NCBI GenBank assembly: GCA_017499595.2
Contig: CM039005.1
Location: 62,001 to 126,000, forward strand
Source of the DNA: Psilocybe cubensis
Lineage: Eukaryota
DNA: 64,000 nucleotides
Reading direction: 5' to 3'
The position numbers were made by a program, and so were the translations under genes. Below are positions 24,854-46,719 of the stretch, piece by piece. The notes below the pieces were generated by a model. That model was not told the origin of the DNA and searched no databases. It saw nothing but the letters and a program-made list of their open reading frames with translations. The stretch's first letter is position 1; every line of letters begins with the position of its first letter.

Positions 24854-25228
24854 TGTTGTAGGGACGTACCAATCCAGGGTACAGCGCCTATCAAAAGCAC
24901 AAGCGGACTTGGCGTCGCTATACGTGCACGGCAGGCGCATCAAGCGCCTGCATCCAAAAAAGGACAGCGAGGATGATCGGGGAGGTCTGCCTCCCCAAAG
25001 GAAATTTTCATCTTTGTTTACTATTATTTCTCAGTGACTGCTTATAACCCCCACTCAGTCTATTCAACCACCTCAGTCGTTTACCATACTGACTGAGGTG
25101 GGCTTTACATTATCTTATCCCATTCAGTATATATTTACTTACATCTTACTACGTACAGTGCCTTGTACAACAGGTAGTCTAGATCAATATTAGTCGTTTA
25201 CCATACTGACTGAGTGCCTTGTACAACA
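24854..25228 (+). repeat. 5' LTR of copia 1
   Basis: TGTTGTAGGGAC..GTACAACA; differs from the reassembled 3' LTR at two positions seen, both CpG>TpG. Confidence 0.95.
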
Positions 25229-28200
25229 GGTTATGGGCCCCGTAGCCTAACGACTTGACACTCGACAAAGCGACTCACCTGAACCCAGACAATCATTGAA
25301 TTCTGACCCCCGATTGCCATACTGCAACCCGACTGGCGTCCTTATTGACGACCCGATCCCAAAAAAATGTCCAGCGCAAATCCGTTTATCTTGCCAGACG
25401 AAGAGAAGTACGACGGCTCCAACTGGATCCAGTTCAAAGCAAAAATCCGTGCTGTAGCCAAACAACGAGGCACCCTCGGTTACCTCGATGGTACCATTCA
25501 AAAACCCAGCCTGGACGACCCAAGTAAACTCGCCACACCAACCACCTACTGGGGAGCCGAAAACCCCACCCTTGACGAATGGAGACAGCGCGATAGCTGG
25601 ACACAGGGCCTAATTACTCTCAACGTCAAGAACGCCATTGGACTAGGCGTGAAGATGGAGGGGACGGCAGCTGAGACATACCGCTCCATAGCAGACGTTA
25701 AAGACGCTACAACGGACCTTGGGTGTATCACTGCTGAAAACGCCCTGAACGAAATCAAGTATGTCGAAGGGTCGAGCATGGAGGACCACATTAGCAAGCT
25801 GAGAACAGCGTGGGCCTACGCCAATGCACAAGGTGCCGACATCAAAGACGCCAAGTTCAGAATGATCGTTCTCCGATCCATGCCAACTAACTGGCTACCG
25901 TTCATTGGATCACTGCACGCCGAAACCACTTCATCCGACGTCATTGCCAGACTCATAGCCCATGCACAATTCATCAAATCTATTCAGCCGCCTTCCATGC
26001 CCACCACACACGCACTCGCAACCCAACACCGTCAGGTCCGTAACCCTCATTTAAAATGTTCCAACCCGGCATGCGGACGTATAGGACACACAATCGAGAA
26101 ATGTTTTAAGGAAGGCGGGGGAATGGCCGGACAGTACCCAGACTGGTGGCGAGGAAGGAAAAGTGGAAATAACGGACCCACGTCAACGGGAGGAGGCGCA
26201 CCAGGAGGCTCAAACAATAAGCAAATTGCAGCAAGTGCGGTAGCACCGGCGGTGACGGACCCAGAATTATTCTACGCATTCTCAGCCATGGCCTTTTCAG
26301 CACACGAGACAGACGATCCATCCATTGAGACATTTGCGGATTCAGCTGCCAGCTCCCACTTCTTCCCTCGTCGCGAGGACTTCACTGACTACCAGGAGAT
26401 CAATATGGAGCCAGGGACGACGGCAAATGGTGGCAATTTTTATATTGCGGGAATCGGAAAGGTCACTAAACATATTGTGTATGAGGGGAAACTGGTTACT
26501 ATCACCTTCGAATCAGCGTATCACACCCCCAACTTATGCCACAATCTCATTTCCATCGGACAATTGCTCAAGCGCGGGTATGAGGTTAGCTTCAAAGGGG
26601 ATCGAGCAGTCTTTATCAACCAAGCCAGCGTACCGTTTATGGAGTCAGAGCCAATGGGCGATGGTTCAATGTTCCGTCTCCACTTCTCCCACACAGTGCT
26701 GGTAAAACAACATGCCTACTCGGCCCGCTCCCTATCTAAACCCACAAACATCGAGCAGTGGCACCGGCGCCTAGGCCACGTATCCGAAGACACTATCCGA
26801 ATGATGACGTCCAAAGAACTGGTGGAAGGACTGACGATAACATCGGAGAAGGCGACTGGGATGTGCGAGGATTGCATATTCGGCAAACAGCACCGCCGCC
26901 CGTTTGACGCTGACGTCGAGCCAGAAACGGAGGCTAACTTGCATGCACACTTTGACACCTGGGGTCCGGCTACGGTGGCCACGCTTGGGGGTAAGAGGTA
27001 TATGCTGGAGGCAGTTGACGGAGGGACGGCATATGTGCAGGTCTTCTTCCTAGAGAACAAGGAAGCAACAAACACCCTGAAATGCCTTGACACGTACCAG
27101 AAACGGGGTGAGCGAATCACTGGGAACAAGCTGGTATTCGTACGCACCGACAACGGCACCGAATTCAAGAATCAACTATGGGAAGAGTATACGAGAGACC
27201 AAGGGATTACTCACGAGTTTATACCAACTTACTCCTCGGCCGCTAACGGTGTCGCTGAACGAGGGCATCGTACCATCCTGGATCGGGTACGTACCATGTT
27301 GCATGATGGTGGACTCGATGGGAGGTTCTGGGGGGAAGCAGCTGCGACTGCTGTTTACTGCAAGAACTTACAGCCGTCAGCCAGACACCCTGGTCCCACG
27401 CCGTCAGAACGATGGCACGGCAAGAAGCCCGATGTCAGCCACCTTCGCCCGTTTGGGTGTGTGGCATACGCAAAGATCCCTGATGCCATCAACTCGGGAA
27501 AATTGGCACCGCGGTCCATCAAATGTGTTCTGCTTGGCTATGCTGGAGTTGGAGAATACTGATTGCTCGACAAGGAAACAGGGCGTATATTCACGTCCCG
27601 GGACGTGATATTTGAGGAAGGAACTCCCCATCGTACCACCAGCACCACCGACGACGACGATGATATCGATATCAACTTCGGTGGCCCATCAGAACCAGAA
27701 GAACCAGAACTTGACAACCCGAACGGCACACACCATGAGAAATCCGAGGACATTGCTTCTACTCCAACACCATCCTTACAACCCTCAGTGCTCGTCGATG
27801 AACAGGCCACTCCTACAGGCACGGTTACTGCGGCTGCTGGGTCTGAGGAGGGGACTGTGACGACGCCGACAGCCAACGACCAACCAAAGACCTCGCGCCC
27901 ACGAATCAAGTACCCACCTGCGTCAAGATCATCCGCTAGGCTCAGGTCCATCAATACAGACCAGTCACCACCTTCCATTGACGACGGTACTGGCAACTCC
28001 TCTATGCCAGGGGAACTTGCAATGGCCAGCCAGGCGGCTGACGACGAGACGTGGGTGCCAACATCATATAAGCAGGCGGCGCAGCGACTGGACTTATGGG
28101 GGCCAGCTATGGACGCAGAGATGGAGATGATGCGACGCATGGGCGTCTGGAGACTGACTGAGCGGCCCAAGGGTGCTAGGGTCATGGGTACAACATGGAC

Positions 28201-29606
28201 ATTTGCAGTCAAACTGGACTCCGACACGGGCGCGGTAATCAAACGCAAAGCGCGAATGGTGGGTCAGGGCTATACACTTGTGCCAGGGGTACACATTGCA
28301 GAATGCCATGCAGCCTCCGTGCGGAATGAATCCCTACGCGCGAATATAGCGGTTGGAGTCGTTAGAAGAATGTTCATATGGCAGGCCGACTACACAAGCG
28401 CATACCTGAATGCTCCAAACAAAATAAAGATCCTTATGGAACAACCTGAAGGATACAAGGTCACGTCGCTCTGTGGTTACATCCCATGTCCTGACAAGGT
28501 CCAGATCCCAAATCCTTATGGGCCGGTTTACGAAGTCACCGCGTATGTCCCCGCTGGAGGAGAAGTTCACAAGGTCGTGGACAACCCAGGTTACTCCGCA
28601 CCGGCAGACGCTGAGGACAAGCTCGACCTCGTCGCAGTACTAGACAAGAGCCTCTATGGAGTTGGGGACAGCGGACGGAACTGGTTCAAGACCCTCCACA
28701 AGTCAATGTCCAAACTTGGTTACTACCAATCCCGAGCAGACCAATGCGTTAGGGCAAGGGTAATCAATGACGAACTAACCATTACCTGCACCTACACCGA
28801 CGACGTTACAGGTATGAGTGACACCGAAGAAGGATATAGGAAGGCGGTGGAGGAACTGGGAAAGGACTTTGAATTGAAGGATTTGGGGGAGCTGAAGAGC
28901 GTGATAGGGTTGGACATCAAGAGGGACTGGGACAACAATGCCATCACCATCTCGCAGGAAGCATACATCAAACGATTCCTGAAGAAGTACGGTTTTGACG
29001 AGGCGAAGCCCAAATACACTCCCTTACCTCCGGGAATCGTTCTCCTACGCAGCCAGTCACCAAGCACCGACGATGAGCGACAATTCATGAAGGACAAACC
29101 GTACCGCGAGATTCTGGGATCCATCATGTATGCCCAGATGGGAACGAGGCCTGACCTATCCCATGCCGTAGCCTCGCTCTCGCGATTCGCATCCGACCCG
29201 GGTGTGGAACATTGGAAAGCACTTACTCATGTATTACGCTACCTGCGGGCCACATCGCACTTCAAGCTTCGCTATGGAGGACCGAACGTCAACTCCTTCA
29301 CTCCCTCAATATACGTCGACGCTGATTATGCAGGAGATTCCGAGAAACGGCGATCTATGGACGGGTACATTGCTATGCAGGCGGGCGGACCAACATTGTG
29401 GAGTGCTAAGTACCAACACACAGTTGCAACATCAACCACGGAGGCGGAATACATGGCGCAATCGAGGGGTGCCCAACAACTTATGTGGATGTACTCATCC
29501 CTGGACGAGATCGGTCTCCAACAACCCCGACCCGCGCAGATGTACGGAGATAATCAATTGGCTTGCCACATTGCGAACAGCAGCACGGGAACATCGAAGG
29601 TCAAAC

Positions 29607-32600
29607 TGTTGTAAGGATAGTGCGCAGTGGTGGTAAAAGGTATCAATGTTCACGACGTAACTATACACCTGTACCTACAGTAGCTACGGAACCTGTAGTA
29701 GAATGATCTAGAAAAATATGATAAGATAACTACAATAGAAAGATAATGACTTAGCGACGAAGTCGCTCGCCGACTATCATTCCAACACTCCCCCTTAGTC
29801 GGCCAAAACTCCCAACTGCAAAATGAAACCGTCGTGTGCAACTCGAGGTAAGGCCTTTGTAAATATATCCGCCAAATTGTTTGAAGTGTTGATGTAAACC
29901 GTGTCGAGCGTCTTCTTCTCCACCAAGTCGCATAGGAAATGAAATGCAATGTCAATGTGCTTCGTACGGGCATGGAATTCTGGATGATGCGCAATCGAAA
30001 TGGCTGCCGTATTGTCGGTAAAGATGGTTGACGTCGACGGAATGTGGAAACCGAGCTCCGTAAAGAGTGAGTGGTGCCATAAGACTTGCTTCGCCGCATG
30101 CGTTGTGGAAACGTATTCTGCTTCAGCGGTTGAAAGTGCGACCGTATTCTGTTTCTTTGAGCTCCATGCCACAGCGCCGCCTGCTATCGTAACCACGTAT
30201 CCGCTGGTTGATTTCCGATCGTAGTTTTCAGCCCAATCGGCGTCGCAATAAACATTGAGATTTACGTCCAAAACTTGCAAATCGCCGCCGTAAGTGAGTT
30301 TGTGATTGCGCGTGCCCTTCAGATAGCGAAATATACGTTTGACAGCGGTCCAATGAGTCGATTTCGGCTTGCTGGTGAATTGCGCAAGTTTGTATACCGC
30401 AAACGCGATGTCTGGACGAGTTCCGAGTGCCAGATACATGAGCGAGCCGATGACCGTTGCATAACTGAATCCTAAACGCGAATTAACCTCCCCCTGACCG
30501 TCTCCATCCTCCCGAACACCTTCATCCTTATCCAATCGCACGTTTGGGTCCATAGGCGTCGAAACGGGATTTGCGTCTTGTAAACCAAACTTCTCGAGGA
30601 GTTTGTCGATGTAGTGTGCTTGCGAGAGCGAAATGTAATGGTCCTTTTGCTCGAGCTTGAATCCTAGCATCATCGAGGGCTGACCCATCGATTTAACGTC
30701 GAATTTCGAGCCTAATTCTCGCTCCAGCTGGTCGTTGAGCGAGTCGTTCGTTGAGAAACTGATTATGTCGTCCACCCAGGTAACTAAAATCGTAAAATCG
30801 CCGTTTTCAGCTCGACGGATGTAGCAGCAGTAATCGCTCTTGAGTTTCGTAAAACCGAATGAAGTGAGAGCGTTATCGAGTTCATGGTTCCATACGTTTC
30901 CTGCCTGCTTGAGACCGTAAAGCGAACGAATGAGACGGCATTCCTGACCAGTGCCATCGTCATAACCGGGTGGTTGGACCATATAAATCTCCTCCGAGAT
31001 GTAACCGTGCAAATATGCACCCTTTATATCGAATTGACGCATCTTGAGATTGTGTACGGCCGAATATGCGAGTAGCGAGCGTAGCGTGTCGAATCGCATG
31101 ACTGGTGCGAATGTTCCGTCCTTGCTGTAGTCTGTACCAGGTCTCTGAGAGCATCCCTGAACGACTAGTCGGGCCTTGTACTTGATGACGTTCCCGTTTT
31201 CGTCCCGTTTCTTCGCGTAGACCCAACGGCATCCAACCAGTTTCCTTCCATCCGGAATCTTCATCATCTCCCAAGTACCCATCCGTAAAAGCGTCTCGAT
31301 TTCTTCGTCCATAGCTGCCTTCCACGCAGCTGCCTCACAGCTTTCCAAAGCTTCTTCAAGTGTCCGAGGTACGTCCGATTCGCGCATGGCGAAGACACGT
31401 TCCGAATCGTCTAAAATCGCGCCCCACAGCTGTTCTTTGACAATGTTTGCTTGCTCTGTTGCTGTAGACTTTGCGCTCGAGGTCTCGGTCGATTTTGTAG
31501 CGATTTGTGGTGCGTTTGGAGTCGTTTGGGATCGTGTAGTCGGTAAACGAGCATTCGGGTTGTTTGCCTTCTTGTAATCGATGAAATTGTGTTCACGAGC
31601 TGATCGACGTATGCTGGGCTGTGGAATCGGTGCTGTAGACGAAATAGGTTCGTTCTTGACGGTTTCTGGCTCGTTTTCGCTGGATTTAACGTCTGTCGAT
31701 TCGTTACGCTCCCCCTCAGACAATAATCCAGGAATTTCGACGTTCTGCGGCGTTTCGTTTTCATTAAACGATACGTTTCGCGATGACTTCACTGTGCGCG
31801 ATTTGGGATCGTAATAACGCACAGACTTCGAGCCTTCATTAAAACCAACGAATACCTTCTTCTTCGACCGTGGCTTGAGCTTCGAAAGCCCCTTCGTCTC
31901 GTCTAACACCCATACATCGCATCCGAACTCCCGAAGGTGAGAAACATCCGGTTTCTTATTGTGCCAGCCTTCATATGGTGTCTTGTCGTCGAGTGCTCGA
32001 GTAGGCGCGCGGTTGCGTAAATAATTCGCGTAATTGACCGCTTCGTCCCAGAGAAAGAGAGGTAAATTCTTCGCAATAATCATCGCACGTGCTAGCTCCA
32101 ACAGCGTACGATTGTAGCGCTCTGCGACGCCGTTCTGAGATGGGGAATATGGCGCCGTCGTCTCGATTTCAATGCCTCTCTCCGCCGCCCACTTCTTAAT
32201 CCGCTCGTTCACGAGTTCCTTGCCATTGTCCATGCGAATGTACCTCGGATACTGCCCAAACCTCCTCTTCACTCGCTCCCCATGATTCTCAATCGCCTTC
32301 GCCGCCTCCTTCTTGTCCTTCAAGAAAACCACGCCGTTGTATCGCTTCGCGTCGTCCATAAACGTAATGTAGTAATAAAATCCATTTACCGAGCGTGTTC
32401 CGATAGGACCCCATATGTCGCTCATGGTTCGCTCTCCAGGAACCGTGGATCGATTTTCTGCTTCTCCAGGGAAAGGATTATGCGTCTGCTTCGCTTGGAT
32501 GCACGCCTCGCACGATGGGGATGGAATAGATGTTTCGTCCACGGAAAGACCAACGACGAGATCGTTCCGGACGAGTTTCTGCAACGACGACACTGAGATA

Positions 32601-34241
32601 TGGCCAAAACGACGATGCCATTGATCCCAGGTGAGTTTTGGCGAGACGTAGTTGACCTGTTCCCCTGAATTAAGCTGAGCGCGAGCGTGAAGAATATACA
32701 TCTGACCGCGTTTCGACCCTTTTCCAATAACCTTATCCTTCGCATCCATCAAAAGAACCTTCCCATTCTTAAACGACGAGCTCCTCCCATCCCTCTCAAA
32801 CCTTCCGAGCGACATCAAAGCATTTTCGGCTTCAGGGATGTGTAAAACGTCTTTCAAACGATGAGTAATCGTCTGCCCGTCGACATCGAAGTTGAGGATG
32901 ACTGTTCCGCGGCCTGCAATGATAGCTGGACTCTTTCCGACACCACGAACGGAGGAATTAACGAGTGGCATATACTCGATGAAGGCTTCACGGACGGGAC
33001 AAACGTGACTGGTGGTTGCAGAATCGTAAAGCCAGTCGTAACGAGAAAAGTTCGACGTCGAGTACGTGTGGTACGCAACCTCATCGTTGAGCGTAGTGTT
33101 GACGTCCTCCCGAGCCTGATTCGTCCGCCCTCTATTCTTCGTCTTCCGCCCCCTCGGACCCTTTCCTTCACGACCTCCGCCCTTCGCCCAGCAATCCTTC
33201 GAAATGTGCCCCATCTTGTTGCAATTATAGCACTCCTTCCCGCCGCTGCCATCCCTCGAACCATTACCCTTTCCATCCGACGACCCTTGACCTCCACGAA
33301 CTTGAAGCGTAGTCCCTCCGGCACCATCACCTCCACGCTCCTTCCGACGACGAGCTTCTTCAAGAAGAACACCAACGAGCTCCTGCGAAGTGAGAGTAGG
33401 TCGGTTCCCACTCGAGCCCAAGAAAGATGACGCATAGTTCTCCCAAGATTCCGGCAGCGAGGTGAGCAAGATCATGACGAAATCTTTGTCCGAAACAATG
33501 CTGCCCATGATGTGCAGCTCCTCCTGGAATTGACGTAGCTTTGCGATATGCTCTGCCATGTCGCATCCCTCCTCTGCGGTTGCCCGGAAAAGTGCTCGTC
33601 GTGTCGCCAAAACACCAAGTCGTCCCTTGGATTCCTTCACTGTGCACAACTGCGTCCACATCTCGCGTGCCGTGCGCGCTCCCAGGACGTGTACCATTTC
33701 CGCATCGCTTAACGCGAGTTCGATCCTGCATCGCGCTTTCGCATCTCCCTTATCCCACGCTGTCTGAGCTGCGATTTCTTCCGCCGTGGGTGCGTTCGGT
33801 TTCGCTGATCCTGGTCGAAGCGACGTGCCGTCCACGTATTTCTCCAGTCCGAGGTCCACCAGTACTGCTAGCATGCACCGCTTCCACGGCATCCAATTGT
33901 GGGCCTTCAGTGTGTCGATGCGATATCCGCCGATGTTGACTTCCGCGGTTGTCGAGTCGGCCATTTGACTTCAAGTGCGAGTTTAGATATAGATCGATAA
34001 GAATAGAACGAGTTTAAAAACAAAGCAAGCTTTAGTTATGACCTTTCGGGGCCCATAACCTGTTGTAAGGATAGTGCGCAGTGGTGGTAAAAGGTATCAA
34101 TGTTCACGACATAACTATACACCTGTACCTACAGTAGCTACGGAACCTGTAATAGAATGATCTAGAAAAATATGATAAGATAACTACAATAGAAAGATAA
34201 TGACTTAGCGACGAAGTCGCTCGCCGACTATCATTCCAACA
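29607..34241 (-). mobile_element. Ty1/copia LTR retrotransposon 2, inserted antisense into the RNase H of copia 1
   Basis: 181-bp LTRs at 29607-29787 and 34061-34241 (2 G/A differences seen), TSD CAAAC (29602-06, 34242-46), PBS GGTTATGGGCCC (minus, 34049-60), PPT AAGGGGGAG. Confidence 0.97.
29795..33964 (-). CDS. Copia 2 gag-pol polyprotein, 1389 aa, open frame
   Basis: CYNCNKMGHISKDC, YDSATTSH, WHRRFGH..CEAC, DNGKE..NGVAER, KARLV, SLYGLKQAG, WVDD, DADWA, KHIDIAFHF, ADIFTKAL. Confidence 0.96.
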   Translation of the reverse strand: MADSTTAEVNIGGYRIDTLKAHNWMPWKRCMLAVLVDLGLEKYVDGTSLRPGSAKPNAPTAEEIAAQTAWDKGDAKARCRIELALSDAEMVHVLGARTAREMWTQLCTVKESKGRLGVLATRRALFRATAEEGCDMAEHIAKLRQFQEELHIMGSIVSDKDFVMILLTSLPESWENYASSFLGSSGNRPTLTSQELVGVLLEEARRRKERGGDGAGGTTLQVRGGQGSSDGKGNGSRDGSGGKECYNCNKMGHISKDCWAKGGGREGKGPRGRKTKNRGRTNQAREDVNTTLNDEVAYHTYSTSNFSRYDWLYDSATTSHVCPVREAFIEYMPLVNSSVRGVGKSPAIIAGRGTVILNFDVDGQTITHRLKDVLHIPEAENALMSLGRFERDGRSSSFKNGKVLLMDAKDKVIGKGSKRGQMYILHARAQLNSGEQVNYVSPKLTWDQWHRRFGHISVSSLQKLVRNDLVVGLSVDETSIPSPSCEACIQAKQTHNPFPGEAENRSTVPGERTMSDIWGPIGTRSVNGFYYYITFMDDAKRYNGVVFLKDKKEAAKAIENHGERVKRRFGQYPRYIRMDNGKELVNERIKKWAAERGIEIETTAPYSPSQNGVAERYNRTLLELARAMIIAKNLPLFLWDEAVNYANYLRNRAPTRALDDKTPYEGWHNKKPDVSHLREFGCDVWVLDETKGLSKLKPRSKKKVFVGFNEGSKSVRYYDPKSRTVKSSRNVSFNENETPQNVEIPGLLSEGERNESTDVKSSENEPETVKNEPISSTAPIPQPSIRRSAREHNFIDYKKANNPNARLPTTRSQTTPNAPQIATKSTETSSAKSTATEQANIVKEQLWGAILDDSERVFAMRESDVPRTLEEALESCEAAAWKAAMDEEIETLLRMGTWEMMKIPDGRKLVGCRWVYAKKRDENGNVIKYKARLVVQGCSQRPGTDYSKDGTFAPVMRFDTLRSLLAYSAVHNLKMRQFDIKGAYLHGYISEEIYMVQPPGYDDGTGQECRLIRSLYGLKQAGNVWNHELDNALTSFGFTKLKSDYCCYIRRAENGDFTILVTWVDDIISFSTNDSLNDQLERELGSKFDVKSMGQPSMMLGFKLEQKDHYISLSQAHYIDKLLEKFGLQDANPVSTPMDPNVRLDKDEGVREDGDGQGEVNSRLGFSYATVIGSLMYLALGTRPDIAFAVYKLAQFTSKPKSTHWTAVKRIFRYLKGTRNHKLTYGGDLQVLDVNLNVYCDADWAENYDRKSTSGYVVTIAGGAVAWSSKKQNTVALSTAEAEYVSTTHAAKQVLWHHSLFTELGFHIPSTSTIFTDNTAAISIAHHPEFHARTKHIDIAFHFLCDLVEKKTLDTVYINTSNNLADIFTKALPRVAHDGFILQLGVLAD

Positions 34242-34915
34242 CAAACACATCGATATACGGTCACACTACGTTCGGGAATGGGTCGAAGAAGGCGACATAC
34301 GAATCGACTACATTCCTAGCGAAGAGAACTTAGCCGACCTCCTAACAAAACCATTGGGAAGATCACTCCACTGGAAATTCTGTGCTGCCATGCGTCTATG
34401 CGACCCGAGCGATCCACTTATCCGCCGTACTGAGGATTAGTCCGTCGGGGGAGTGTTGTAGGGACTGTCAGGGCAACACTATAATCAGTGTGACAAGGCC
34501 ACCAACAAAGATTAAGCAAGAGAGAGAAAGAGAGAGCAGAGGGAGAGTAAGAGAGCAAAGAGAGAATAAGAGAGTGAGAGAGATTCAATGGTTCTAAGAG
34601 ATCACACCAATGATAGTGGATATCCTAAGAGATTGAAGCTGAAGCTACAGCTACCTACAAGTCCAGTATTTATACTCTACAGCTATTCTAGAATATTCCC
34701 TACATTACATCATAAAGGAAGGTTAAAGAATAAAAGTGACATCATATAGAAAAAGGATGAGTAAGACTAGGAATCATATAGAATTTACTAGAAAGAAGTG
34801 GAGCAAGAAGGCTGTGATGAAAGAAATAAACTATCTAATCAGATAATTGATAAGATAATGAAAGAATAAGATAATTCTGTGAAGATAAAGAGGGGAAACT
34901 GGAGAAACCCTGACA

Positions 34916-37900
34916 TCACCCCCTCTCTAAGGCACATTTTCCACAATGTGCACATGGATGGGTTAGTTTAGAGGGTTTAAGAAGAGGAGGAGGTTCAGTA
35001 AAGTTAATAATAGGAGTGAAAGAAAGTCTATCAAAGGTCACAGCAGAAATCCTTCTAGGTGCTGAAGGATGTTTGGCATGGAAGTCCTTGATAGCCTTAG
35101 AAGCATTTTTCAAATGCTCTGCAGGCTCCCAAGTGCATTCTTCATTAGGATAGTTCTTCCACTTGACCAAATATTGAAGTTTGTTTCTAAAAAGTCTGCT
35201 GTCCTTGATAAATTCAACTTCCCACTCAGGATTTTCTCCTTGAATGACAGGAGGTGGTCTAGAAGGAGGCTTTCTTCCTACAATATCTGGGTGATAAGGT
35301 AGAAGTTTAACCACATTGAACACTGGATGGATTTTTATGGTAGATGGCAGCTTAAGCTCATAGGCATTAGGGCTAATAACTTTGGTAATTTTGTAAGGCC
35401 CATATCTTTTATCATCCAATTTCTTGGAGGGCCTATCAGTTTTGAGGTCCTTGCCATCTAACCATACCAAATCCCCAACTTTGTACTGAGTTGGAGTACC
35501 TCTGTGTCTATTATAGAATTTAGCCATGTCATCAGAAGCTTTTCTAAGTGCAGACTCTGCTTCTTTCCTGGCTTCTTCCATATTTTTCACAAAGGTATCC
35601 ACAGTGTCCATTTTACTATCTCTAAGGGGTTCAGTGCCCATTCTGGGATGTCTGCCATTATTGAGCATGAATGGTGTCTGCCTGGTTGAAGCCTGAACTC
35701 TATTGTTATAAGAGAATTCAGCTAGAGCTAACCATTCAACCCAATCATCTTGTCTATGGTTTATAAAGAGTCTAAGATACTGCTCAATTTCTTGGTTAAC
35801 TCTTTCAGTCTGACCATCAGTTTGGGGATGGTAGGCTGTAGATGAGGCTGTCTGGATACCAAGTATTGAGTTGAGTTCTTTCATAAACCTTGAGACAAAC
35901 TGTGGACCTCTATCACACAGAATTTTAATGGGTAAGCCATGGTGTTTCCAGACATAATCTCTGTATAGTCTGGCTGTCCCTTCAGAAGTGACTTCATCTG
36001 TAGTAGGGATAATGTGGATCATTTTACTAAGTCTATCCACAACCACCATAATAGCATTATACCCTTGACATTCTGGTAACCCCATAATAAAGTCCACAGA
36101 GATGCATTGCCAGACATCAGAGGGAATCTCAGTAGGAATTAAAAGGCCAAGAGGTTTGGCTGGAAAGGTTTTGGTTCTGTTGCATCTATCACAACCTCTG
36201 GTATAGGCTGCAATAAAATGTGACATTCCTGGCCACCAATAATTCCTAGAGACTAGCTCAATTGTCTTCCATTTCCCTGGATGTCCAGCAATGAAGGCAT
36301 CATGGTGCAGTTCCACAATCTTTCTTCTAAGATCTTTGTCCTTGGGAACATACACCTTCCCCCTGTAGAGAATAAGGCCTTGTTCTTCTGACCATTCCTG
36401 TCCTTCAATCTTCTTGGTAGAAGATTTCTTGAGCTCCTGAACTGCCTTGACCACCTTTTCATCCATCTCCTTAGCTTCTCTAATCTTCTTAAGAAGATCA
36501 TTTTCTGCACCAGTAATGGTAGCATGACCCTGCTTGAGAGCCTGGATTTTAAAGTAGGAAGGTTTGAGGAGAACTACATTTTGGTTATCATTCTCTCCCT
36601 TTTTATGATCTGGTCTCCTAGACAAAGCATCTGGCTTAAGAGATCTTTTACCAGGCCTATGATGAAGAGTAAAATCAAATCTGGACAGGAAGAGTGACCA
36701 TCTGGCTTGCCTTCTGCTGAGCTTTTGGGCAACCATAAAGTACTCTAAGTTTTTGTGGTCTGTCCAAATCTCAAAGGAATGTTGGGTTCCTTCAAGATAA
36801 TGTCTCCATTCATCTAGTGCTCTGATAATAGCCAGCATCTCTTTGTCATGGATCTCATAATTCCTTTCTACTTCAGATAGACTCTTAGACATAAAGGCTA
36901 CAGGATGCCATTTCCCATCTGATCCTTCCTGAGATAAAACAGCCCCAGTAGCATAATCTGAACTGTCTGCTTCAACTTTATATGGCTTGTTATCATCAGG
37001 GAAAATCAAGACAGGTGAAGAAGTGACTTTCTTCTTTAACTGGTCAAAGGCTTCCTGCTGTCTAAGACTCCATCTCCAGACTGTTCCTTTCTTTGTCAAT
37101 TCATGAAGGGGCTTAGCAATGTCTGCAAAATCCTCTATGAACCTTCTATAAAAATTAACAAATCCCAAGAATGATTGGACATCCTTGACATTTTCAGGTT
37201 CAGGCCATTTAGAAACTCCCTCTACCTTGACAGGATCCATCTCAATCCTGCCTTGTGAAATGATTAGTCCAAGATATTCAATCTTTTCCTTTTCAAATTC
37301 ACATTTCTCTGCTTTAAGGTAGAGTTTGTTCTGTTCTAAGATTTGCAGAACTTGCTTGACTACCTCTCTATGATGATCAAGAGTCTCAGTGAAAATTAAA
37401 ATGTCATCCATGTAGACAATGACAACATTTCCATCAATGAGCTCAATAAAGATATCATTCATCATAGTTTGGAAGGTAGCAGGACTATTGGTTAAACCAA
37501 AGAACATGACCAATGGTTCAAACAGCCCTCTATTGGTTCTAAAGGCTGCTTTCCATTCATCTCCCTTTTTGATTCTGACATTGTTAAATCCCCACCTAAC
37601 ATCAAGTTTGGTGAAGTATTTGGCTTTGCTGAGTTTGGTGATGATGTCAGAAATCAATGGAAGGGGGTAGGAGTTCTTGATGGTCATTTCATTCAGTTTC
37701 CTATAGTCCTGGACAAGCCTAAGAGATCCATCCTTCTTCTTGACAAAGAATACAGGGGAGGCCATAGGTGACTTGGAGGGTCTAATCCTGCCAGACTTCA
37801 GATTTTCCTCTAAAAAGGCATCAAGTTCCTTTTGTTCATTGGGAGAAAGAGGATAAATCTTGGATCTGTAAGGTTCAGAACCAGGTTTCAGCTCAATAGC

Positions 37901-38785
37901 ATGATCCCAAGGCTTTCTGTCTGGTAGCCTATCAAAAGATTCCTTTGAAAAAACACCTTTAAACTGATGATAGTGCTTAGGAACAGTTTCTTCAAAGGTT
38001 TTCTTAGGGGAATCAGCTTGCTGATGAGACTCTTCTGCTAATCTTTGAGACATAGTAGAAGTAGCATTAATAGACTGCTTCTGAGGATGAAGGTATGAGA
38101 TAAAAATTCTATCCTCAGGCTCAATCTCAGAATCAGAAGAATCTTCAATAGAATCATCTTCTTCTTCATCAAATTGAGGGAGTTTCCTCCTTTTGACTGC
38201 AGCTATTCTCTGCCTCTTTCTTCTGGCTCTTTTGGCTTCCATTTGGCAGTCAGAGGGACATCTAATAAACTGGACATCCCCTGTCTTCCAATCAACATCT
38301 GGATTATGGTGCCAAAGCCAAGTATGTCCAATGATAGCAGATTTGTCTCCCAAGTCACAAACAGCAAAGGTGGCCCTTTCTGTATGGTTTTTGTGTACCA
38401 TAATTAAGTCTACTTCCTCATGGATAGAGCCACTCTTGTTGAGAGTACCATCAACATTATAGACTGGAATGGCTCTAGGAAGTTTCCTTGTGTTGAGATT
38501 ATGATACTTCACAAAACCAGAATGCAGAAAGAGGCCAGTAGCTCCAGAATCAAGCAAAGCATCAACAGATAACCTTTTCTCTGTGTCCATTGTCTTTAAG
38601 ATGACAGACAAATGGGTAGAGGTTTTAGGATTATGGTTGAGGATGTAGATCTTTTCAGGGAAGGTAGAAAGAGAGGAAGAAGAAGACATGATTTCTGCAC
38701 CAGAATCTGAAGACTGAGGATCAAGTCTGTCAATTTCATTTTCTAGTACATTAAATCTATTCCATTGGGACATGTCTTTCACCAA
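34916..38785 (-). CDS. pol: Gypsy Pol (PR-RT-RNaseH-IN-chromodomain), probably expressed by -1 frameshift from gag
   Basis: LLDSGAT, YMDDILI, DSSDYATGAVL, H..H..CDRC Zn finger, DRGPQF..GQTER, GPY motif, chromodomain EWEVEFI..YLVKWKNYPNEECTWEP. Confidence 0.96.
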   Translation of the reverse strand: MVKDMSQWNRFNVLENEIDRLDPQSSDSGAEIMSSSSSLSTFPEKIYILNHNPKTSTHLSVILKTMDTEKRLSVDALLDSGATGLFLHSGFVKYHNLNTRKLPRAIPVYNVDGTLNKSGSIHEEVDLIMVHKNHTERATFAVCDLGDKSAIIGHTWLWHHNPDVDWKTGDVQFIRCPSDCQMEAKRARRKRQRIAAVKRRKLPQFDEEEDDSIEDSSDSEIEPEDRIFISYLHPQKQSINATSTMSQRLAEESHQQADSPKKTFEETVPKHYHQFKGVFSKESFDRLPDRKPWDHAIELKPGSEPYRSKIYPLSPNEQKELDAFLEENLKSGRIRPSKSPMASPVFFVKKKDGSLRLVQDYRKLNEMTIKNSYPLPLISDIITKLSKAKYFTKLDVRWGFNNVRIKKGDEWKAAFRTNRGLFEPLVMFFGLTNSPATFQTMMNDIFIELIDGNVVIVYMDDILIFTETLDHHREVVKQVLQILEQNKLYLKAEKCEFEKEKIEYLGLIISQGRIEMDPVKVEGVSKWPEPENVKDVQSFLGFVNFYRRFIEDFADIAKPLHELTKKGTVWRWSLRQQEAFDQLKKKVTSSPVLIFPDDNKPYKVEADSSDYATGAVLSQEGSDGKWHPVAFMSKSLSEVERNYEIHDKEMLAIIRALDEWRHYLEGTQHSFEIWTDHKNLEYFMVAQKLSRRQARWSLFLSRFDFTLHHRPGKRSLKPDALSRRPDHKKGENDNQNVVLLKPSYFKIQALKQGHATITGAENDLLKKIREAKEMDEKVVKAVQELKKSSTKKIEGQEWSEEQGLILYRGKVYVPKDKDLRRKIVELHHDAFIAGHPGKWKTIELVSRNYWWPGMSHFIAAYTRGCDRCNRTKTFPAKPLGLLIPTEIPSDVWQCISVDFIMGLPECQGYNAIMVVVDRLSKMIHIIPTTDEVTSEGTARLYRDYVWKHHGLPIKILCDRGPQFVSRFMKELNSILGIQTASSTAYHPQTDGQTERVNQEIEQYLRLFINHRQDDWVEWLALAEFSYNNRVQASTRQTPFMLNNGRHPRMGTEPLRDSKMDTVDTFVKNMEEARKEAESALRKASDDMAKFYNRHRGTPTQYKVGDLVWLDGKDLKTDRPSKKLDDKRYGPYKITKVISPNAYELKLPSTIKIHPVFNVVKLLPYHPDIVGRKPPSRPPPVIQGENPEWEVEFIKDSRLFRNKLQYLVKWKNYPNEECTWEPAEHLKNASKAIKDFHAKHPSAPRRISAVTFDRLSFTPIINFTEPPPLLKPSKLTHPCAHCGKCALERG

Positions 38786-38793
38786 TGGTGCTT

Positions 38794-39903
38794 CTAAAAA
38801 TTTTTCTTTTCCTCATCTTTCTGCTCCTTGCCTTCCAAGATTAATTTCCCAAAGTAGTCAGCCAGTTCTTCATGGGTCATAGCATTGATGTTAACTGATG
38901 ACCTGCAGTTTACAGCCTTATGACCAGGCTTTCTGCACTTGAAGCAAACAATTGGCCTAACTGACTTCCATCCAGAGTCAACCTCCATGGGAACTACATC
39001 TGGTTGCTTTGCCTGAGCACCAAAGGTCCTTGAGCTGCTGTTGGAAAAGACTGGAGGATTTGGAGTAGGCTTAGGAACAGCCTTGGGAGTTGGGGCTTTA
39101 AGGAAGGGAGAAGAAGAGGAGGAGGAAAGAGACTTGGTAAAGGCCTCACTCTGTCTCCACTGCCTATCTAGCCTAGTACTCCATTTAATCCATCCATCCA
39201 AGGTTTTGGGCATGTCAGGAACATAGTAGACTGCATTCCTAAGATTTTCATTAAGCCCAGCCTTGAATTGGTCTACCAAAGCAGCATCATTATACCCAGT
39301 ATCTGAGATCAGAGCCCTGAAGCTAGCAACATACTCATCAGCAGTCTGTCTGCCTTGCTTGAGCATGTGCATTTTATGCTTAGCTGTGTTGGAGGGGTCT
39401 GGATCTGCAAACACTTCCCTAAATTCATAAACAAAGTCAGCCCAAAGACCTTCTTGGGACTGAGCATTGTCTATTACTTTAGTCTTCTCATATGCCCACT
39501 TCCCAGCAGTACCTCCTTTCATATGAGATAGAGCACAAATAACTTTCTGAAAGTCATCTGTAATCCCTTTCCCATAGAAATATAATTTAAGCTGACTGAG
39601 GAAGTTTTCTGCCTTCTCCATAGAACCATCAAATGGATCTGGAGGTGAAACTTTAATGGCAGAGTGTGAACAGGAAGGGGCAACATGAGGGGTAGGGAAA
39701 GAGTGAATATCTAGAGCAGCAGGTGGTGGTGGTGGTGGTGGTGATGGTGACTGACTGACTGGTTGCTGAGGGTGTGGTGGAGTGGATAATGACTGCTGCT
39801 GCTGTCTAAGAAAATTCAACTCTTGGGTAAGGAGCTGGACCTGATGCATGAGCTTTTCCACAGAAGGAGTGGTGGGAGGCAATTGGGAGGGGTCCATGTC
39901 CAT
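38794..39903 (-). CDS. gag: Gypsy Gag, 369 aa
   Basis: PDPFDG, LKQG..ADEY, PMEVD and Zn knuckle CFKCRKPGHKAVNC; ends A AAT TTT TAG. Confidence 0.94.
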   Translation of the reverse strand: MDMDPSQLPPTTPSVEKLMHQVQLLTQELNFLRQQQQSLSTPPHPQQPVSQSPSPPPPPPPAALDIHSFPTPHVAPSCSHSAIKVSPPDPFDGSMEKAENFLSQLKLYFYGKGITDDFQKVICALSHMKGGTAGKWAYEKTKVIDNAQSQEGLWADFVYEFREVFADPDPSNTAKHKMHMLKQGRQTADEYVASFRALISDTGYNDAALVDQFKAGLNENLRNAVYYVPDMPKTLDGWIKWSTRLDRQWRQSEAFTKSLSSSSSSPFLKAPTPKAVPKPTPNPPVFSNSSSRTFGAQAKQPDVVPMEVDSGWKSVRPIVCFKCRKPGHKAVNCRSSVNINAMTHEELADYFGKLILEGKEQKDEEKKNF

Positions 39904-40394
39904 GGGTAGGGGTAGGTAGGCTCTCTGATGTGTGTGTGGGAGAAGCTATCTACTGAAAGTGCCCTTGAAACTATACTAAGTATTCTAAAAAAATATCTAT
40001 CTACTGGATACCCAGTTGTCACACCACTCAGGGCTCTAAACCTAGGATCACAGGGTTACTGGATATTTCCTAGACCACCAAAAACAGAACACTAGTAGGA
40101 CTGTGTCTGCCCCAACAGTTGGTATCCCTATCTACTAAGTTCACACACAGCACACAACAGAGAGTAGGAAAGATGATGAGCCAAAAGTCTTGAGGAAAGG
40201 TCTTGAGGAAAGGTTTTGAGGAGGATGTTGAAGATTGGTGGAGATGTAGAGATTGGTAAGAAGATTGGTGAAGAGGTTGATGAAGAGGTTGGTGGGTTGG
40301 AAGTGGAGGAAGAAGGTTGAGGTGATGGTGTTGAAGAGGTTGAAGAGGTGAAGAGTTTGGTGTTGAAAGAGAGATGGTGGAGTTGTCTTGAGAG

Positions 40395-40405
40395 AGCTTC
40401 AATCT
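40395..40405 (-). other. Self-priming PBS of the gypsy element
   Basis: Sense AGATTGAAGCT, 2 nt after the 5' LTR, is complementary to sense AGCTTCAATCT in the LTR (40572-40582), which starts 27 nt downstream of TATAAATA (40609-16). Confidence 0.8.
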
Positions 40406-41232
40406 TCTGTCAGGGCAACACTATAATCAGTGTGACAAGGCCACCAACAAAGATTAAGCAAGAGAGAGAAAGAGAGAGCAGAGGGAGAGTAAGAGAGCAA
40501 AGAGAGAATAAGAGAGTGAGAGAGATTCAATGGTTCTAAGAGATCACACCAATGATAGTGGATATCCTAAGAGATTGAAGCTGAAGCTACAGCTACCTAC
40601 AAGTCCAGTATTTATACTCTACAGCTATTCTAGAATATTCCCTACATTACATCATAAAGGAAGGTTAAAGAATAAAAGTGACATCATATAGAAAAAGGAT
40701 GAGTAAGACTAGGAATCATATAGAATTTACTAGAAAGAAGTGGAGCAAGAAGGCTGTGATGAAAGAAATAAACTATCTAATCAGATAATTGATAAGATAA
40801 TGAAAGAATAAGATAATTCTGTGAAGATAAAGAGGGGAAACTGGAGAAACCCTGACAGGGACGTACCAATCCAGGGTACAGCGCCTATCAAAAGCACAAG
40901 CGGACTTGGCGTCGCTATATGTGCACGGCAGGCGCATCAAGCGCCTGCATCCAAAAAAGGACAGTGAGGATGATCGGGGAGGTCTGCCTCCCCAAAGGAA
41001 ATTTTCATCTTTGTTTACTATTATTTCTCAGTGACTGCTTATAACCCCCACTCAGTCTATTCAACCACCTCAGTCGTTTACCATACTGACTGAGGTGGGC
41101 TTTACATTATCTTATCCCATTCAGTATATATTTACTTACATCTTACTACGTACAGTGCCTTGTACAACAGGTAGTCTAGATCAATATTAGTCGTTTACCA
41201 TACTGACTGAGTGCCTTGTACAACATACCCCC

Positions 41233-41332
41233 TATCCAGGCTCATTGCTGGGATAAGGGTGTCGTTCGCCTGCCCAGGCTCATTGCTTGGGCAAGGATTT
41301 TCTACTCCCTATCCAGGCTCATTGCGTGGATA
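41233..41332 (+). promoter_or_regulatory. Stem-loop array upstream of the transposase, right half
   Basis: Cores at 41236, 41274 and 41313; ends 24 nt before ATG 41357. Confidence 0.6.
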
Positions 41333-41356
41333 GTTGTACTTCAGCAGGCCGTAATT

Positions 41357-44300
41357 ATGTCCGACGAAAAAAGACCCTGCTTAGGGTGCCATAAACTCTT
41401 TGTACCAGGTCGCTTCTTGAAGCAGCATACCAACAAATGTAAAAAATATCCTGCTGCAATGAGCAAGGTCCTGAAGGGGTTCCAGGAAAACTTCAGCAGG
41501 CAGAATCAGAACAGTAATGTTGCCAGTGGTTCTTCGCACCAGGCAACCCTGAATAATGAGCCCGGGCCTATGGACGTTGATGTCCATCATGAGTATCTTG
41601 ATGTGGATATGGTACCACCTCCAATGCCCCCTGCGCCTCCACCTAAATCACCAACACCACCACCACATCCCCCGACACCACCACCTCCCATTGAACGGCC
41701 CAGAGGACTTCCTCCACGCGTTATTAGATTGCCACAGCGCTTCCGAGACGAGGTCCCACCCAAACCTCCTCTAATTATACCACCAGTCGTGGAGGAGGAA
41801 CCACCTCAGCCTCAGGAACCTCCATCTGTGGAGAGTCTGTATCGAACACCAATGAATGGCTATGGGATATTTCGAGAGTATACCTATGGTCCCCCTTCTA
41901 TTACTCCTGACGAACATTTCACACTGTCATCAGTGTCCGATTCTCCAAATATTGCCAAAGACCCAGCCGACTCTTTGAGAAAGGCGTCAGAGGGAACACC
42001 AATGGCCCTACCTTCGGATTGGTCCTTGGATTCTGAGCCAAAAGACGACAAGAGCTTGCTATTCAAAAATCGTTCTACTCAACTTATCATGTCTTGGTTT
42101 TACAACGGCCACGGTACTAAATCCTACGCTGATACCGACAAATTGATTCACCAAGTCGTACTGGACCCGGATTTTGACCCCAAGGACTTTGATTCCTCCT
42201 TTTCTACTGCTCGAGAGGCAGCGCGTCTGGACGAAATCTCTACCCAAAAAAATTCTACAGATCCTACTTTGTCAGAAGTGTGTCGACCGGAAGCTGGGTG
42301 GATCAAGGGCAGCTTTTCAATACCAGTGCCATGCGACGGTTTCATATTCGATTCGGAAGAGGAGGCTCCTCAATTTGTTGTTGAAAACGTCATGTATCGA
42401 AAACCTCTAGAAGTTATCAAACAGGCCTTTGCAGAATGCACCTCTGAGACGTATATGACCATACCGTACAGAGAATTTTGGCGTCCCTCACCCGACGAAC
42501 CACCCAAACGCTTATTCTCAGAGTCCTACGTGGCGGACATTTTCAATGAAGAGTATGAAAAGATCAAGTCAGAGCCACGCACAGGTCCCCACAGACACCT
42601 GGAGCCCTTTGTCGTTGGTATCGGGATTTTTTCAGATTCTACCCACCTGACCAGTTTTGGCGATGCTTCTATATGGCCGATCCTTATGTATATCCTCAAC
42701 CAGTCAAAATACACCAGAGGGAAACCTAAAGAATTCGCTGCGCATCATATTGCGTATATCCCTAAAGTAAGTTTGTATTGACTGGCATGTACTATTCATA
42801 TTAACGTTTGGGTCATAGCTCACAGACACTTTTCAAGATTGGCATCAGCGACAGTTTGGCAAAGCTGCGACATCTGAAATGCTCACCCATATGAGACGCG
42901 AGGTCAATACAGGCGTGTGGGGGCTATTACTTGATGAGGATGTCAAACGAGCGTATGCTGAAGGAGAGGCCGTAGAACTGGCCGACAGAGTATGTCGAGC
43001 TATGTATCTCCGTTTTATTTTTAGTTCAAATGACTACCCCGAAAAGTAAGTCAACATCTACTCGTTATTTCGTTTGATAACTAATGTACAAGCAGAATGC
43101 TGCAGTCCTGCTGCAAGTGTCGCGGCACTTGCTTGTGTCCACGTTGTTTAATTCAAACTATGAATGTCCCAAAGGTTGGATCAAAGATGGATATGCGAAA
43201 CCGGCTCAAGCTAGCTCGCGTTGACAGCGAAACTCGTCAATTTGACATCGAAACTGCCCGTAAAGCATTGTTCTTGGGGAAAAAGGTTAACAGCAAGGCG
43301 GTTAATGGCTCGCTGCAACAGACCTCTGCTTTTCCAACTCGGGTATATTTTTATTTCCTCATATCTACGTATTTTGTCTAAGAATATTACATAGAACGCT
43401 TTTTCCAAGGCTTTATTTGAATATGGCTTCAACTTTTATCGGATGTTTACTGTCGACTTCATGCACGAAGTGGAACTGGGTGTCTGGAAGGCCCTATTTA
43501 GTCACCTACTCCGGATTCTTTATACCTCTAGCAACCAGAACGCCATTGCAACTCTGAACGAAAGGTATTGTCGTGATATCTCGATTCTTACTCAAACTAA
43601 CTATAGATTTAGATACCGCCAAGTCTCCCCTTTCGGCCTCACAACTATCCGACGTTTTGCTAGGAATGCTTCAGATATGAAGAAACTGGCAGCACGGGAT
43701 TTTGAAGATCTCCTTCAGGTAGGCCTCAATTGCGTGTGATGTTTGATTTTAATTGTTAATGATTCCATAATAGTGCTCTATACCAGTCTTTGAGGGCTTG
43801 TTGCCAGAACCTGCACACAATAAAATTATTCAAAACCTCTTGTTTGAAATGGCAACATGGCACGCCCTAGCCAAGCTTTGACTTCACACCGATACCACTC
43901 TGGACGAGTTGGGGAATTCGTGTACTCGGTTATGTGATCTCCTTCGTCAGTTCCAAAAGGAGGTTTGTAGTCAGTACGCCACTCGCGAGCTTCCATCAGA
44001 AACAGCCGCTAGAGGAAGAAGACAGGCAGCCAAGGCCAAAAAGGCAGCGAGTGCGGGTCTGCCAGTACCTCCGACTCAACCCAATGAACCCAAGACCCGC
44101 ACGTTCAATATGCAAACGTACAAATTGCATTCCCTTCCCGATTACGTCGATTCCATTCGCCAATTTGGCACCACTGACGGCACGAGCACTCAGATGGGCG
44201 AAAGCGAGCACAAGAGAGCGAAACTCTTCTACAAACGGGTCAAGAAAGGTGATCATATTCAAGGTATCGCCAAACACATCTACCGAGAATGTGTGGTACA

Positions 44301-46674: not shown

Positions 46675-46719
46675 GGTGGTGGTGGTGGTGGTGGTGGTGG
46701 TGGTGGTGGTGGTGGTGGT
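46675..46719. repeat. (GGT)15 microsatellite
   Basis: Direct reading. Confidence 0.9.

Follow-up and report, generated by a model that had tools for sequence, protein, structure and literature searches.

An intact chromovirus of Psilocybe cubensis belongs to a retrotransposon clade maintained almost without CpG dinucleotides

Introduction

In mushroom-forming fungi, methylation of CG dinucleotides (CpG) is the main DNA-level mark on transposons, and partial CG depletion is usually read as a scar on dead copies. Clutterbuck reportedly described such partial depletion in Basidiomycete transposons in 2017, in Fungal Genet Biol 104:16, and tied it to mutation and to the inactivation of copies. 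In ascomycetes, repeat-induced point mutation (RIP) acts preferentially at CpA, increases TpA and ruins the reading frames. Here we analyze a stretch of 64,000 nucleotides from Psilocybe cubensis (assembly GCA_017499595.2, contig CM039005.1, positions 62,001 to 126,000 of the forward strand; hereafter the window, whose own numbering is used throughout) that carries at 34466–40857, on the minus strand, a complete and young Ty3/gypsy chromovirus (Metaviridae) without a single CpG. Partial CG deficiency in basidiomycete transposons is known; what sets the present case apart is a deficiency that is total, clade-wide and maintained in intact elements.

Published observations support the premises of the mechanism proposed below. 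In Pleurotus ostreatus, CpG is the main site of methylation, and the Gypsy families show strong methylation and repression (PMC6191308). Agaricomycotina transposons show an over-representation of CpG transitions, and the same survey saw no clear RIP-like signal in three species of this group (PMC3318451). CpG-biased hypermutation is reported for Rhizoctonia solani (PMC4014442), a methylation-based, Masc2-like CpG process has been proposed for basidiomycetes (PMC4352252), and PMC11451569 describes Clutterbuck's work on CG-deficient Basidiomycete transposons, which PMC10787394 also cites. In Microbotryum, transposons are subject to hypermutation at TpCpG and show a paucity of this target where hits would be non-synonymous (Horns et al. 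2012; PMC3318451). That system resembles the present one in that a transposon lineage is losing the target sites of a hypermutating defense, but it belongs to another subphylum, its target is TCG and the paucity is partial, whereas here all CpG is gone in every context and at every codon position. Our literature search returned no report of a CpG-free, intact and proliferating clade of fungal long terminal repeat (LTR) retrotransposons, although overlap with the 2017 work of Clutterbuck is possible.

Results and Discussion

Complete Absence of CpG From an Intact Element

An initial annotation, made from the letters of the window, had claimed that no CG occurs in the LTRs, leader, gag or pol of this element, where by rough expectation there should be a couple of hundred. 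Direct counting bears out both statements: the 6392 nt from 34466 to 40857 (GC content 0.41) contain no CpG, as compared with 267.1 expected from base composition, and each part taken by itself (LTR, leader, gag, pol) also scores zero. When the mononucleotides of the element were shuffled 1000 times, the resulting sequences contained 225–313 CpG, and the Poisson probability of observing none is ~1e-116. GpC in the same interval is near normal (215 occurrences; observed/expected ratio, o/e, 0.81), and the CpG o/e of the 64-kb window overall is 0.80. The nearest flanking CpGs lie at 34446 and 40862 and delimit a CpG-free gap of 6416 bp, whose edges lie no more than 20 bp and 5 bp from the ends of the element; the second-longest such gap in the window measures 735 bp, the gap at the element being nearly nine times longer.

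The element is intact. Both of its open reading frames (ORFs) are open over 369 and 1289 amino acids, the two LTRs are 100% identical over 450 bp and arginine is encoded exclusively by AGR (all 79 codons in the pol frame, all 12 in gag), each in agreement with what had been noted from the letters. These features set the locus apart from the products of known repeat-directed mutation. Damage following duplication leaves copies that differ at CG and many of which are inactivated; here the LTRs are identical, the ORFs are intact and the CpG-free state predates the insertion (see below). RIP is comparable as a repeat-directed C-to-T process, but it converts CpA preferentially to TpA, elevates TpA and interrupts frames with stops, whereas this element lacks nothing but CpG, shows no elevation of TpA (o/e 0.69), has a CpA o/e of 1.14–1.21 and retains open frames.

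A Monophyletic Clade Nearly Devoid of CpG

The comparison was made with relatives of the element, in place of host-wide copies of its family. A protein search scored 8000 candidates and yielded 3003 relatives, the best of which are 84–85% identical; full-length copies annotated for Psilocybe cf. subviscida, at least six in number, belong to the closest protein cluster. Together with a Plavaka transposase fragment beside the element, these matches point to an agaric mushroom as the host. Scanning metagenomes by pol alignment provided 80 loci, six of which have a CpG o/e ≤0.019, with 0, 3, 0, 2, 0, and 2 CpG in 2.5–5.7 kb. These six are exactly the loci with pol identity ≥68% to the query, while the remaining 74 (identity ≤59%) have CpG o/e of 0.38–1.26. 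Eighteen further loci, 14 from a viral collection and four from prokaryote bins, also lie outside the clade (identity ≤59%) with CpG o/e of 0.05–1.21, such that all 92 related loci outside the clade span 0.05–1.26.

In a tree of the core from reverse transcriptase to integrase, calculated from 98 of 99 sequences (L097, poorly covered, was excluded), the seven CpG-free elements, including the one described here, are monophyletic with a support of 0.997. When database proteins were included (230 rows), the clade comprised 64 tips, 57 of them proteins, with no CpG-bearing locus inside and a support of 0.991. Pooled, the seven elements contain 7 CpG in 32,827 nt as compared with 1552 expected (o/e 0.0045). 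In three of the CpG-free contigs the whole element is circularly permuted and collapsed on one LTR; hence LTR, leader and gag are CpG-free in these relatives too. The extreme of a signature usually taken as a scar is here found in living elements, whose genes, regulatory regions and replication signals are kept at ~0.5% of the expected CpG.

L001, L003, and L004, as well as a joint in sequencing run X1 (40406 to 34465), were assembled as circular permutations consisting of the internal region and one LTR, which is most simply explained by collapse of the two LTRs during assembly, with one-LTR circles or tandem copies as alternatives. As to the filing of the relatives, L081–L098 are fungal chromoviruses deposited as viral contigs (14 loci) and within Pyrinomonadaceae and Alphaproteobacteria bins (four loci); the presence of fungal chromoviruses inside bacterial metagenome bins is likely due to mis-binning.

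Maintenance of the CpG-Free State in Elements Under Purifying Selection

Within the clade, pol nucleotide identity is 67–80%, synonymous divergence (dS) ranges from 1.1 to saturated and non-synonymous divergence relative to synonymous divergence (dN/dS) is 0.05–0.15; the six clade loci are only 70–75% identical in pol nucleotides to the element studied here. The CpG-free state is therefore maintained and inherited across the clade, and its proteins are under purifying selection. Since every synonymous site has been turned over since these elements diverged, CpG would have returned without continuing constraint, and a state common to elements at saturated dS must predate the present insertion.

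These data bear on the possibility that RIP-like mutation or deamination removed the CpGs of a single copy once it had inserted. CpG-depleted copies do exist outside the clade (for example L093, CpG o/e 0.05), but the decayed relatives among them (CpG o/e 0.05–0.36) have longest ORFs of 177–530 amino acids, in line with the argument of the initial annotation that decay alone should break reading frames. At the present locus, by contrast, ORFs and LTRs are undamaged, TpA is unlike that of ascomycete RIP products, six elements diverged by 25–33% in nucleotides carry the same state, and contigs from three other sequencing runs cover the element at ~99.5–99.8% identity. We regard post-insertion stripping of one copy as having next to no probability, and reject it on the basis of the CpG-free relatives, the run contigs and the saturated divergence.

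The loss of CpG extends through the coding sequence in a characteristic manner. None of the 79 arginine codons of this pol is CGN, as compared with 39–89% of arginine codons in the 14 tabulated intact CpG-bearing relatives, and no NCG codon is present. Among codons of this pol that end in C or T, those followed by G comprise 0 ending in C and 178 ending in T, while elsewhere the numbers are 236 and 306. In the pol frames of the clade, 0 of 1046 such codons before G end in C, as compared with 1485 C to 1454 T elsewhere. At conserved arginine columns the clade retains arginine in 247 of 362 cells, with lysine in 48 and glutamine in 18.

A Multicopy Family With Signs of Recent Activity

DNA reads of X19 (Illumina) were mapped over 20 kb, to which 93,836 reads aligned, 51,820 of them at least 99% alike. 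Depth, which sums both read directions and indicates copy number only relative to the neighbors, is 1377–1868 over the chromovirus, 137–184 over an adjacent copia element (copia 2, described below), 320–380 over the right flank and ~20 in the lowest bins. The element thus has a depth approximately 10 times that of copia 2 and the highest of the 20 kb mapped. At each LTR end, 368–659 reads run on into flanks unlike this locus (consensus agreement 0.34–0.37), and these divergent flanks indicate many insertion sites. Among 15 of the 62 read joints, the joint expected of an empty site was not present.

The same reads address the concern that the missing CpG might be an artefact of sequencing or assembly, for example through miscalling of methylated CpG. 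We found nothing in favor of this explanation, to which we assign only a vanishingly small probability: raw Illumina reads lie on the element, independent metagenome assemblies of relatives are in the same state, and the reading frames are intact and their codon use coherent. The raw reads and the independent assemblies refute it.

The family contigs differ from this copy at no more than 0.5% of positions, while a CpG-normal sibling would differ by ~4%, which excludes CpG-normal siblings as the source of these contigs. An appreciable computed CpG count and CpG-rich siblings had been named in the initial annotation as outcomes that would contradict it; instead, the count is zero, the clade members among the 98 related loci, six in all, carry 0–3 CpG each, and the contigs of the family proper are nearly identical to this copy. 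Its interpretation is thereby supported. The view of a still-active lineage also fits the data, namely the identical LTRs, an intact target-site duplication, intact gag and pol, the roughly tenfold depth and the hundreds of reads that extend into varied flanks. No RNA run was listed as carrying the element; in a run presumed to be RNA, a fraction of 0.14 of the element's words is present.

Runs X1–X13, which bear five coded organism labels, contain near-identical copies of the element (0.76–0.91 of its 31-mers). The flanking repeats also occur in these runs at ~96–99% identity, for which closely related taxa are the simplest reading.

Route of CpG Loss and Possible Mechanisms

The composition of the clade suggests how CpG disappeared. 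The excess of TG+CA in the pooled clade, measured against a yardstick of 16 intact CpG-normal relatives, accounts for 81% of the missing CpG (TG+CA o/e 1.18 in the element studied here vs. 0.94 in these relatives). In this respect, and in that the LTR differences of host copia elements are mostly at CpG, the locus resembles the CG-deficient transposons of other Basidiomycetes; it differs in that depletion is total, clade-wide and held through saturated divergence in intact multicopy elements. A separate chromovirus lineage, L013, seems to have been caught partway through this process. It has an intact ORF of 1371 amino acids and most of its synonymous CpG is gone: when compared with L015, it carries TpG or CpA in place of CpG at 170 sites, with the reverse at 8. 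It retains CGN at 75 of 99 arginine codons, while CpG at codon junctions is down to 20 of 202.

That the host mutates CpG in transposons is evident from the two copia elements adjacent to the chromovirus, in whose pooled LTR pairs 3 of 5 differences are CpG transitions (rate ratio ~17, 95% interval 2–206). Because synonymous sites in the clade are saturated, an argument from equilibrium odds took the place of a polarized count, along terminal branches, of substitutions that create CpG. By this measure, C is disfavored before G by odds of no less than 356-fold (95% bound), as compared with ~17 in the copia LTRs and 17.5 in L013; the bound also lies above the upper limit of the copia interval.

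The few CpGs that persist are informative. Five residual coding CpGs occur in the clade (three in L002 and two in L066), and all are in CGN arginine codons, the class that C-to-T change cannot remove silently. This is the pattern expected of fast neutral C-to-T removal under purifying selection. We consider it probable that a CpG-directed host defense and purifying selection have together acted as a sieve and produced a lineage without CG-methylatable sites. In such a scheme, the host would methylate transposons at CG and methylated CG would turn into TG or CA; a lineage repeatedly landing in methylated heterochromatin would lose all of its synonymous CpGs by neutral C-to-T change, copies hit at arginine CGN or other constrained CpGs would die, and the only survivors would be lineages with arginine recoded to AGR. 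An extra push might come from selection on each CpG, or from exceptionally frequent CpG mutation in a heterochromatin-targeting lineage. The end product, having no CG, cannot be CG-methylated and contains no CpG mutational hot spots, and the element may for this reason be spared silencing.

Several points weigh against the sieve. The count of zero, its spread across the clade, the saturated divergence under purifying selection and the excess of TG+CA are observations; that methylation drove the loss, and that the element escapes silencing as a result, are inferences. The odds of at least 356-fold seem to exceed those of ordinary methylation-driven decay, so that more than passive deamination is needed, and a CpG-rich, intact copia (o/e 1.37) lies at a distance of 223 bp, which implies that the host pressure spares some active elements. 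In addition, the CpG state of the clade was read from the DNA of seven members, the other 57 being represented by protein, and the host may harbor rare CpG-bearing sibling copies.

The excess odds would be accounted for if selection acted directly on every CpG, any one of which might seed CG methylation and silencing, with mutation secondary. Such adaptive stealth is consistent with a bias well above the copia and L013 estimates, with the recoding of all arginines to AGR, which requires C-to-A transversions that are not a product of deamination, with the lack of CpG in the non-coding LTR and leader, and with the highest read depth in the mapped 20 kb. However, selection blind to position would not leave a residue of CGN codons only, with none at the more numerous junctions that a transition can reach, as fast neutral C-to-T change would, and it is questionable whether a single CpG in 6 kb could affect silencing. 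Selection of this kind as the principal cause is possible, but in our judgment rather doubtful.

A process specific to CpG could instead operate within the replication cycle, through a deaminase acting on cDNA or a ZAP-like RNA sensor degrading transcripts that contain CpG. Evasion of ZAP is known from vertebrate RNA viruses with suppressed CpG and from HIV-1, and the parallel with a replicating genetic parasite shaped by a CpG-reading host defense is apparent, although those cases involve an RNA sensor in place of DNA methylation or mutation, partial suppression and other hosts. The trait does track the lineage of the element and not its neighborhood, given the CpG-rich intact copia nearby, and depletion is much stronger than in decayed relatives. 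On the other hand, deamination of minus-strand cDNA predicts an excess of CpA, whereas no clear strand asymmetry is seen on the sense strand (TpG o/e 1.21, CpA o/e 1.14), and the copia, also a retroelement, is unaffected. To our knowledge, although no search aimed at this was made, no CpG-specific sensor or deaminase of such a kind is known in fungi, and we find this explanation very unlikely.

Beyond the sieve, a more ambitious reading takes the CpG-free genome as a counter-defense evolved by a widespread Agaricales chromovirus clade, the chromodomain bringing its elements into heterochromatin methylated at H3K9 and CG, where CG-methyltransferases would find no substrate. We put this forward tentatively, as something that could well be so but for which we would not claim even chances. 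If it were true, insertions in such regions would do little harm, the element would stay transcribable and free of mutational hot spots, and each new CpG would be removed by selection as well as by mutation. Self-priming (see below) would also allow the element to dispense with a primer site complementary to tRNA.

Whatever the route, these elements provide natural tests of whether CG methylation is required for the silencing of fungal transposons, of the strength of CpG-directed mutation in repeats and of whether recoding can free transposons from a defense that depends on sequence context. They also have practical consequences: dating by LTR identity will underestimate the age of CpG-free elements relative to CpG-bearing ones, and CpG depletion alone is unusable as a marker of transposon inactivation.

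Element Anatomy and Predicted Self-Priming

By structure the element is an ordinary chromovirus, and its unusual feature is its composition. It has LTRs bounded by TG and CA within a target-site duplication, the order protease, reverse transcriptase, RNase H and integrase, an integrase chromodomain, and a gag with capsid and CCHC domains. In element sense, the 3′ LTR lies at 34466–34915 (minus strand) and the 5′ LTR at 40408–40857 (minus strand), each 450 bp long; a 451st matching base returned by the repeat finder is a chance match. The 5-bp target-site duplication GGGAC occupies 34461–34465 on the left and 40858–40862 on the right.

The pol frame (34916–38812, minus strand) is open from 38812, and its stop codon at 34916–34918 abuts the 3′ LTR. 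Its translation contains the protease motif DSG at residues 79–81, and Pfam matches comprise RVT_1 (348–509), RT_RNaseH (597–703), Integrase_H2C2 (816–873), rve (893–987), the SH3-like SH3_Tf2-1 and Chromo. Directly ahead of the pol stop and the 3′ LTR is AGAGAGGGGG (34919–34928, minus strand), by its position a putative polypurine tract. The chromodomain at the C-terminus of integrase (35075–35224, minus strand; residues 1188–1237, E 2.5e-15) aligns with the chromodomains of CDY, SUV39H1, HP1, and Rhino and has W, W, and Y at the positions of the aromatic cage. The initial annotation had suggested that a chromodomain may direct the element to heterochromatin; the domain is indeed present, all three of its cage positions are aromatic, it aligns with readers of H3K9 methylation, and this copy sits in a cluster of nested transposons.

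Gag (38794–39903, minus strand; 369 amino acids) matches Ty3_capsid, Retrotrans_gag and zf-CCHC, the last corresponding to a CCHC zinc knuckle. Pol is in the −1 frame relative to gag, with an overlap of 18 nt, and a candidate frameshift heptamer, A AAT TTT, which fits X XXY YYZ, is found directly before the gag stop (38797–38803, minus strand). A Gag-Pol fusion is presumably made by −1 frameshifting at this heptamer.

Tf1 of fission yeast primes its own reverse transcription, RNase H cutting the 5′ end of the transcript after it has folded back so as to yield the primer, and a similar mechanism is predicted here. A primer-binding site of 11 nt (40395–40405, minus strand), of the self-priming type, begins 2 nt past the 5′ LTR and is complementary to positions 276–286 of the LTR sense strand, which are the first 11 nt of the predicted transcript, at the start of the R region (40572–40582, minus strand). 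The predicted start lies 27 nt downstream of a TATA box, TATAAATA (40609–40616, minus strand). This layout of TATA box and R start is common to L001, L003, and L004, and the pairing of the primer site is conserved in all four elements with LTR sequence, being the same in L001 and preserved by compensatory changes in L003 and L004. The site lacks the initial TGG that a match to the 3′ end of a tRNA would require (tRNAs themselves were not compared). The element further resembles the Tf1/sushi group in carrying an SH3_Tf2-1 domain and a chromodomain after integrase; it differs in that absence of CpG is not a described property of that group and in that priming here is predicted from sequence.

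Insertion Site and Neighboring Sequences

The chromovirus is one of two insertions into an older copia element, forming a three-deep nest at 24854–41225. Copia 1, the host element (24854–41225, plus strand), has a 3′ LTR split by the chromovirus into 34454–34465 and 40863–41225, the insertion lying 12 bp inside this LTR; the 5′ LTR of copia 1 preserves the empty site, with the same 20 bases uninterrupted at 24854–24873. Copia 2 (29603–34242) interrupts the body of copia 1. Over 363 bp, the LTRs of copia 1 are 99.45% identical, their two differences each being CpG/TpG, while those of copia 2 are 98.4% identical over 186 bp with one of three differences a CpG transition; those of the chromovirus are without difference. 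Copia 2 encodes an intact polyprotein of 1389 amino acids (29795–33964, minus strand) with the CpG o/e given above, and its LTR ends at 34242, so that the note of a CpG-rich copia ~220 bp away was accurate. Its composition is opposite to that of the chromovirus.

The description of the neighbors as CpG-damaged held only in part. The CpG transitions between the LTRs of the adjacent copias agree with it, but bins within 10 kb of the element have CpG o/e of 0.5–1.47.

To the right of the nest, an ORF at 41216–42781 (plus strand) contains a partial Plavaka transposase domain, and X19 reads include several back-joints at 41226–41298 that suggest a variable short duplication. A trinucleotide repeat at 46675–46726 matches 28 nt of gag (positions 5258–5285 of the plus strand of the element), a low-complexity match only.

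The other CpG-poor spots in the window are two open ankyrin-repeat ORFs, at 6317–8419 (minus strand, 700 amino acids) and 60159–62366 (plus strand, 735 amino acids), with CpG o/e of 0.15 and 0.27 and TG+CA of 1.55 and 1.53, respectively. The two genes are ~75% identical to each other, and the internal repeat units of one of them (ank2) are 80–88% identical, with CpG transitions making up only 83 of 1147 differences between these units. The CpG poverty of these ORFs may reflect repeat-associated CG mutation acting on a gene family.

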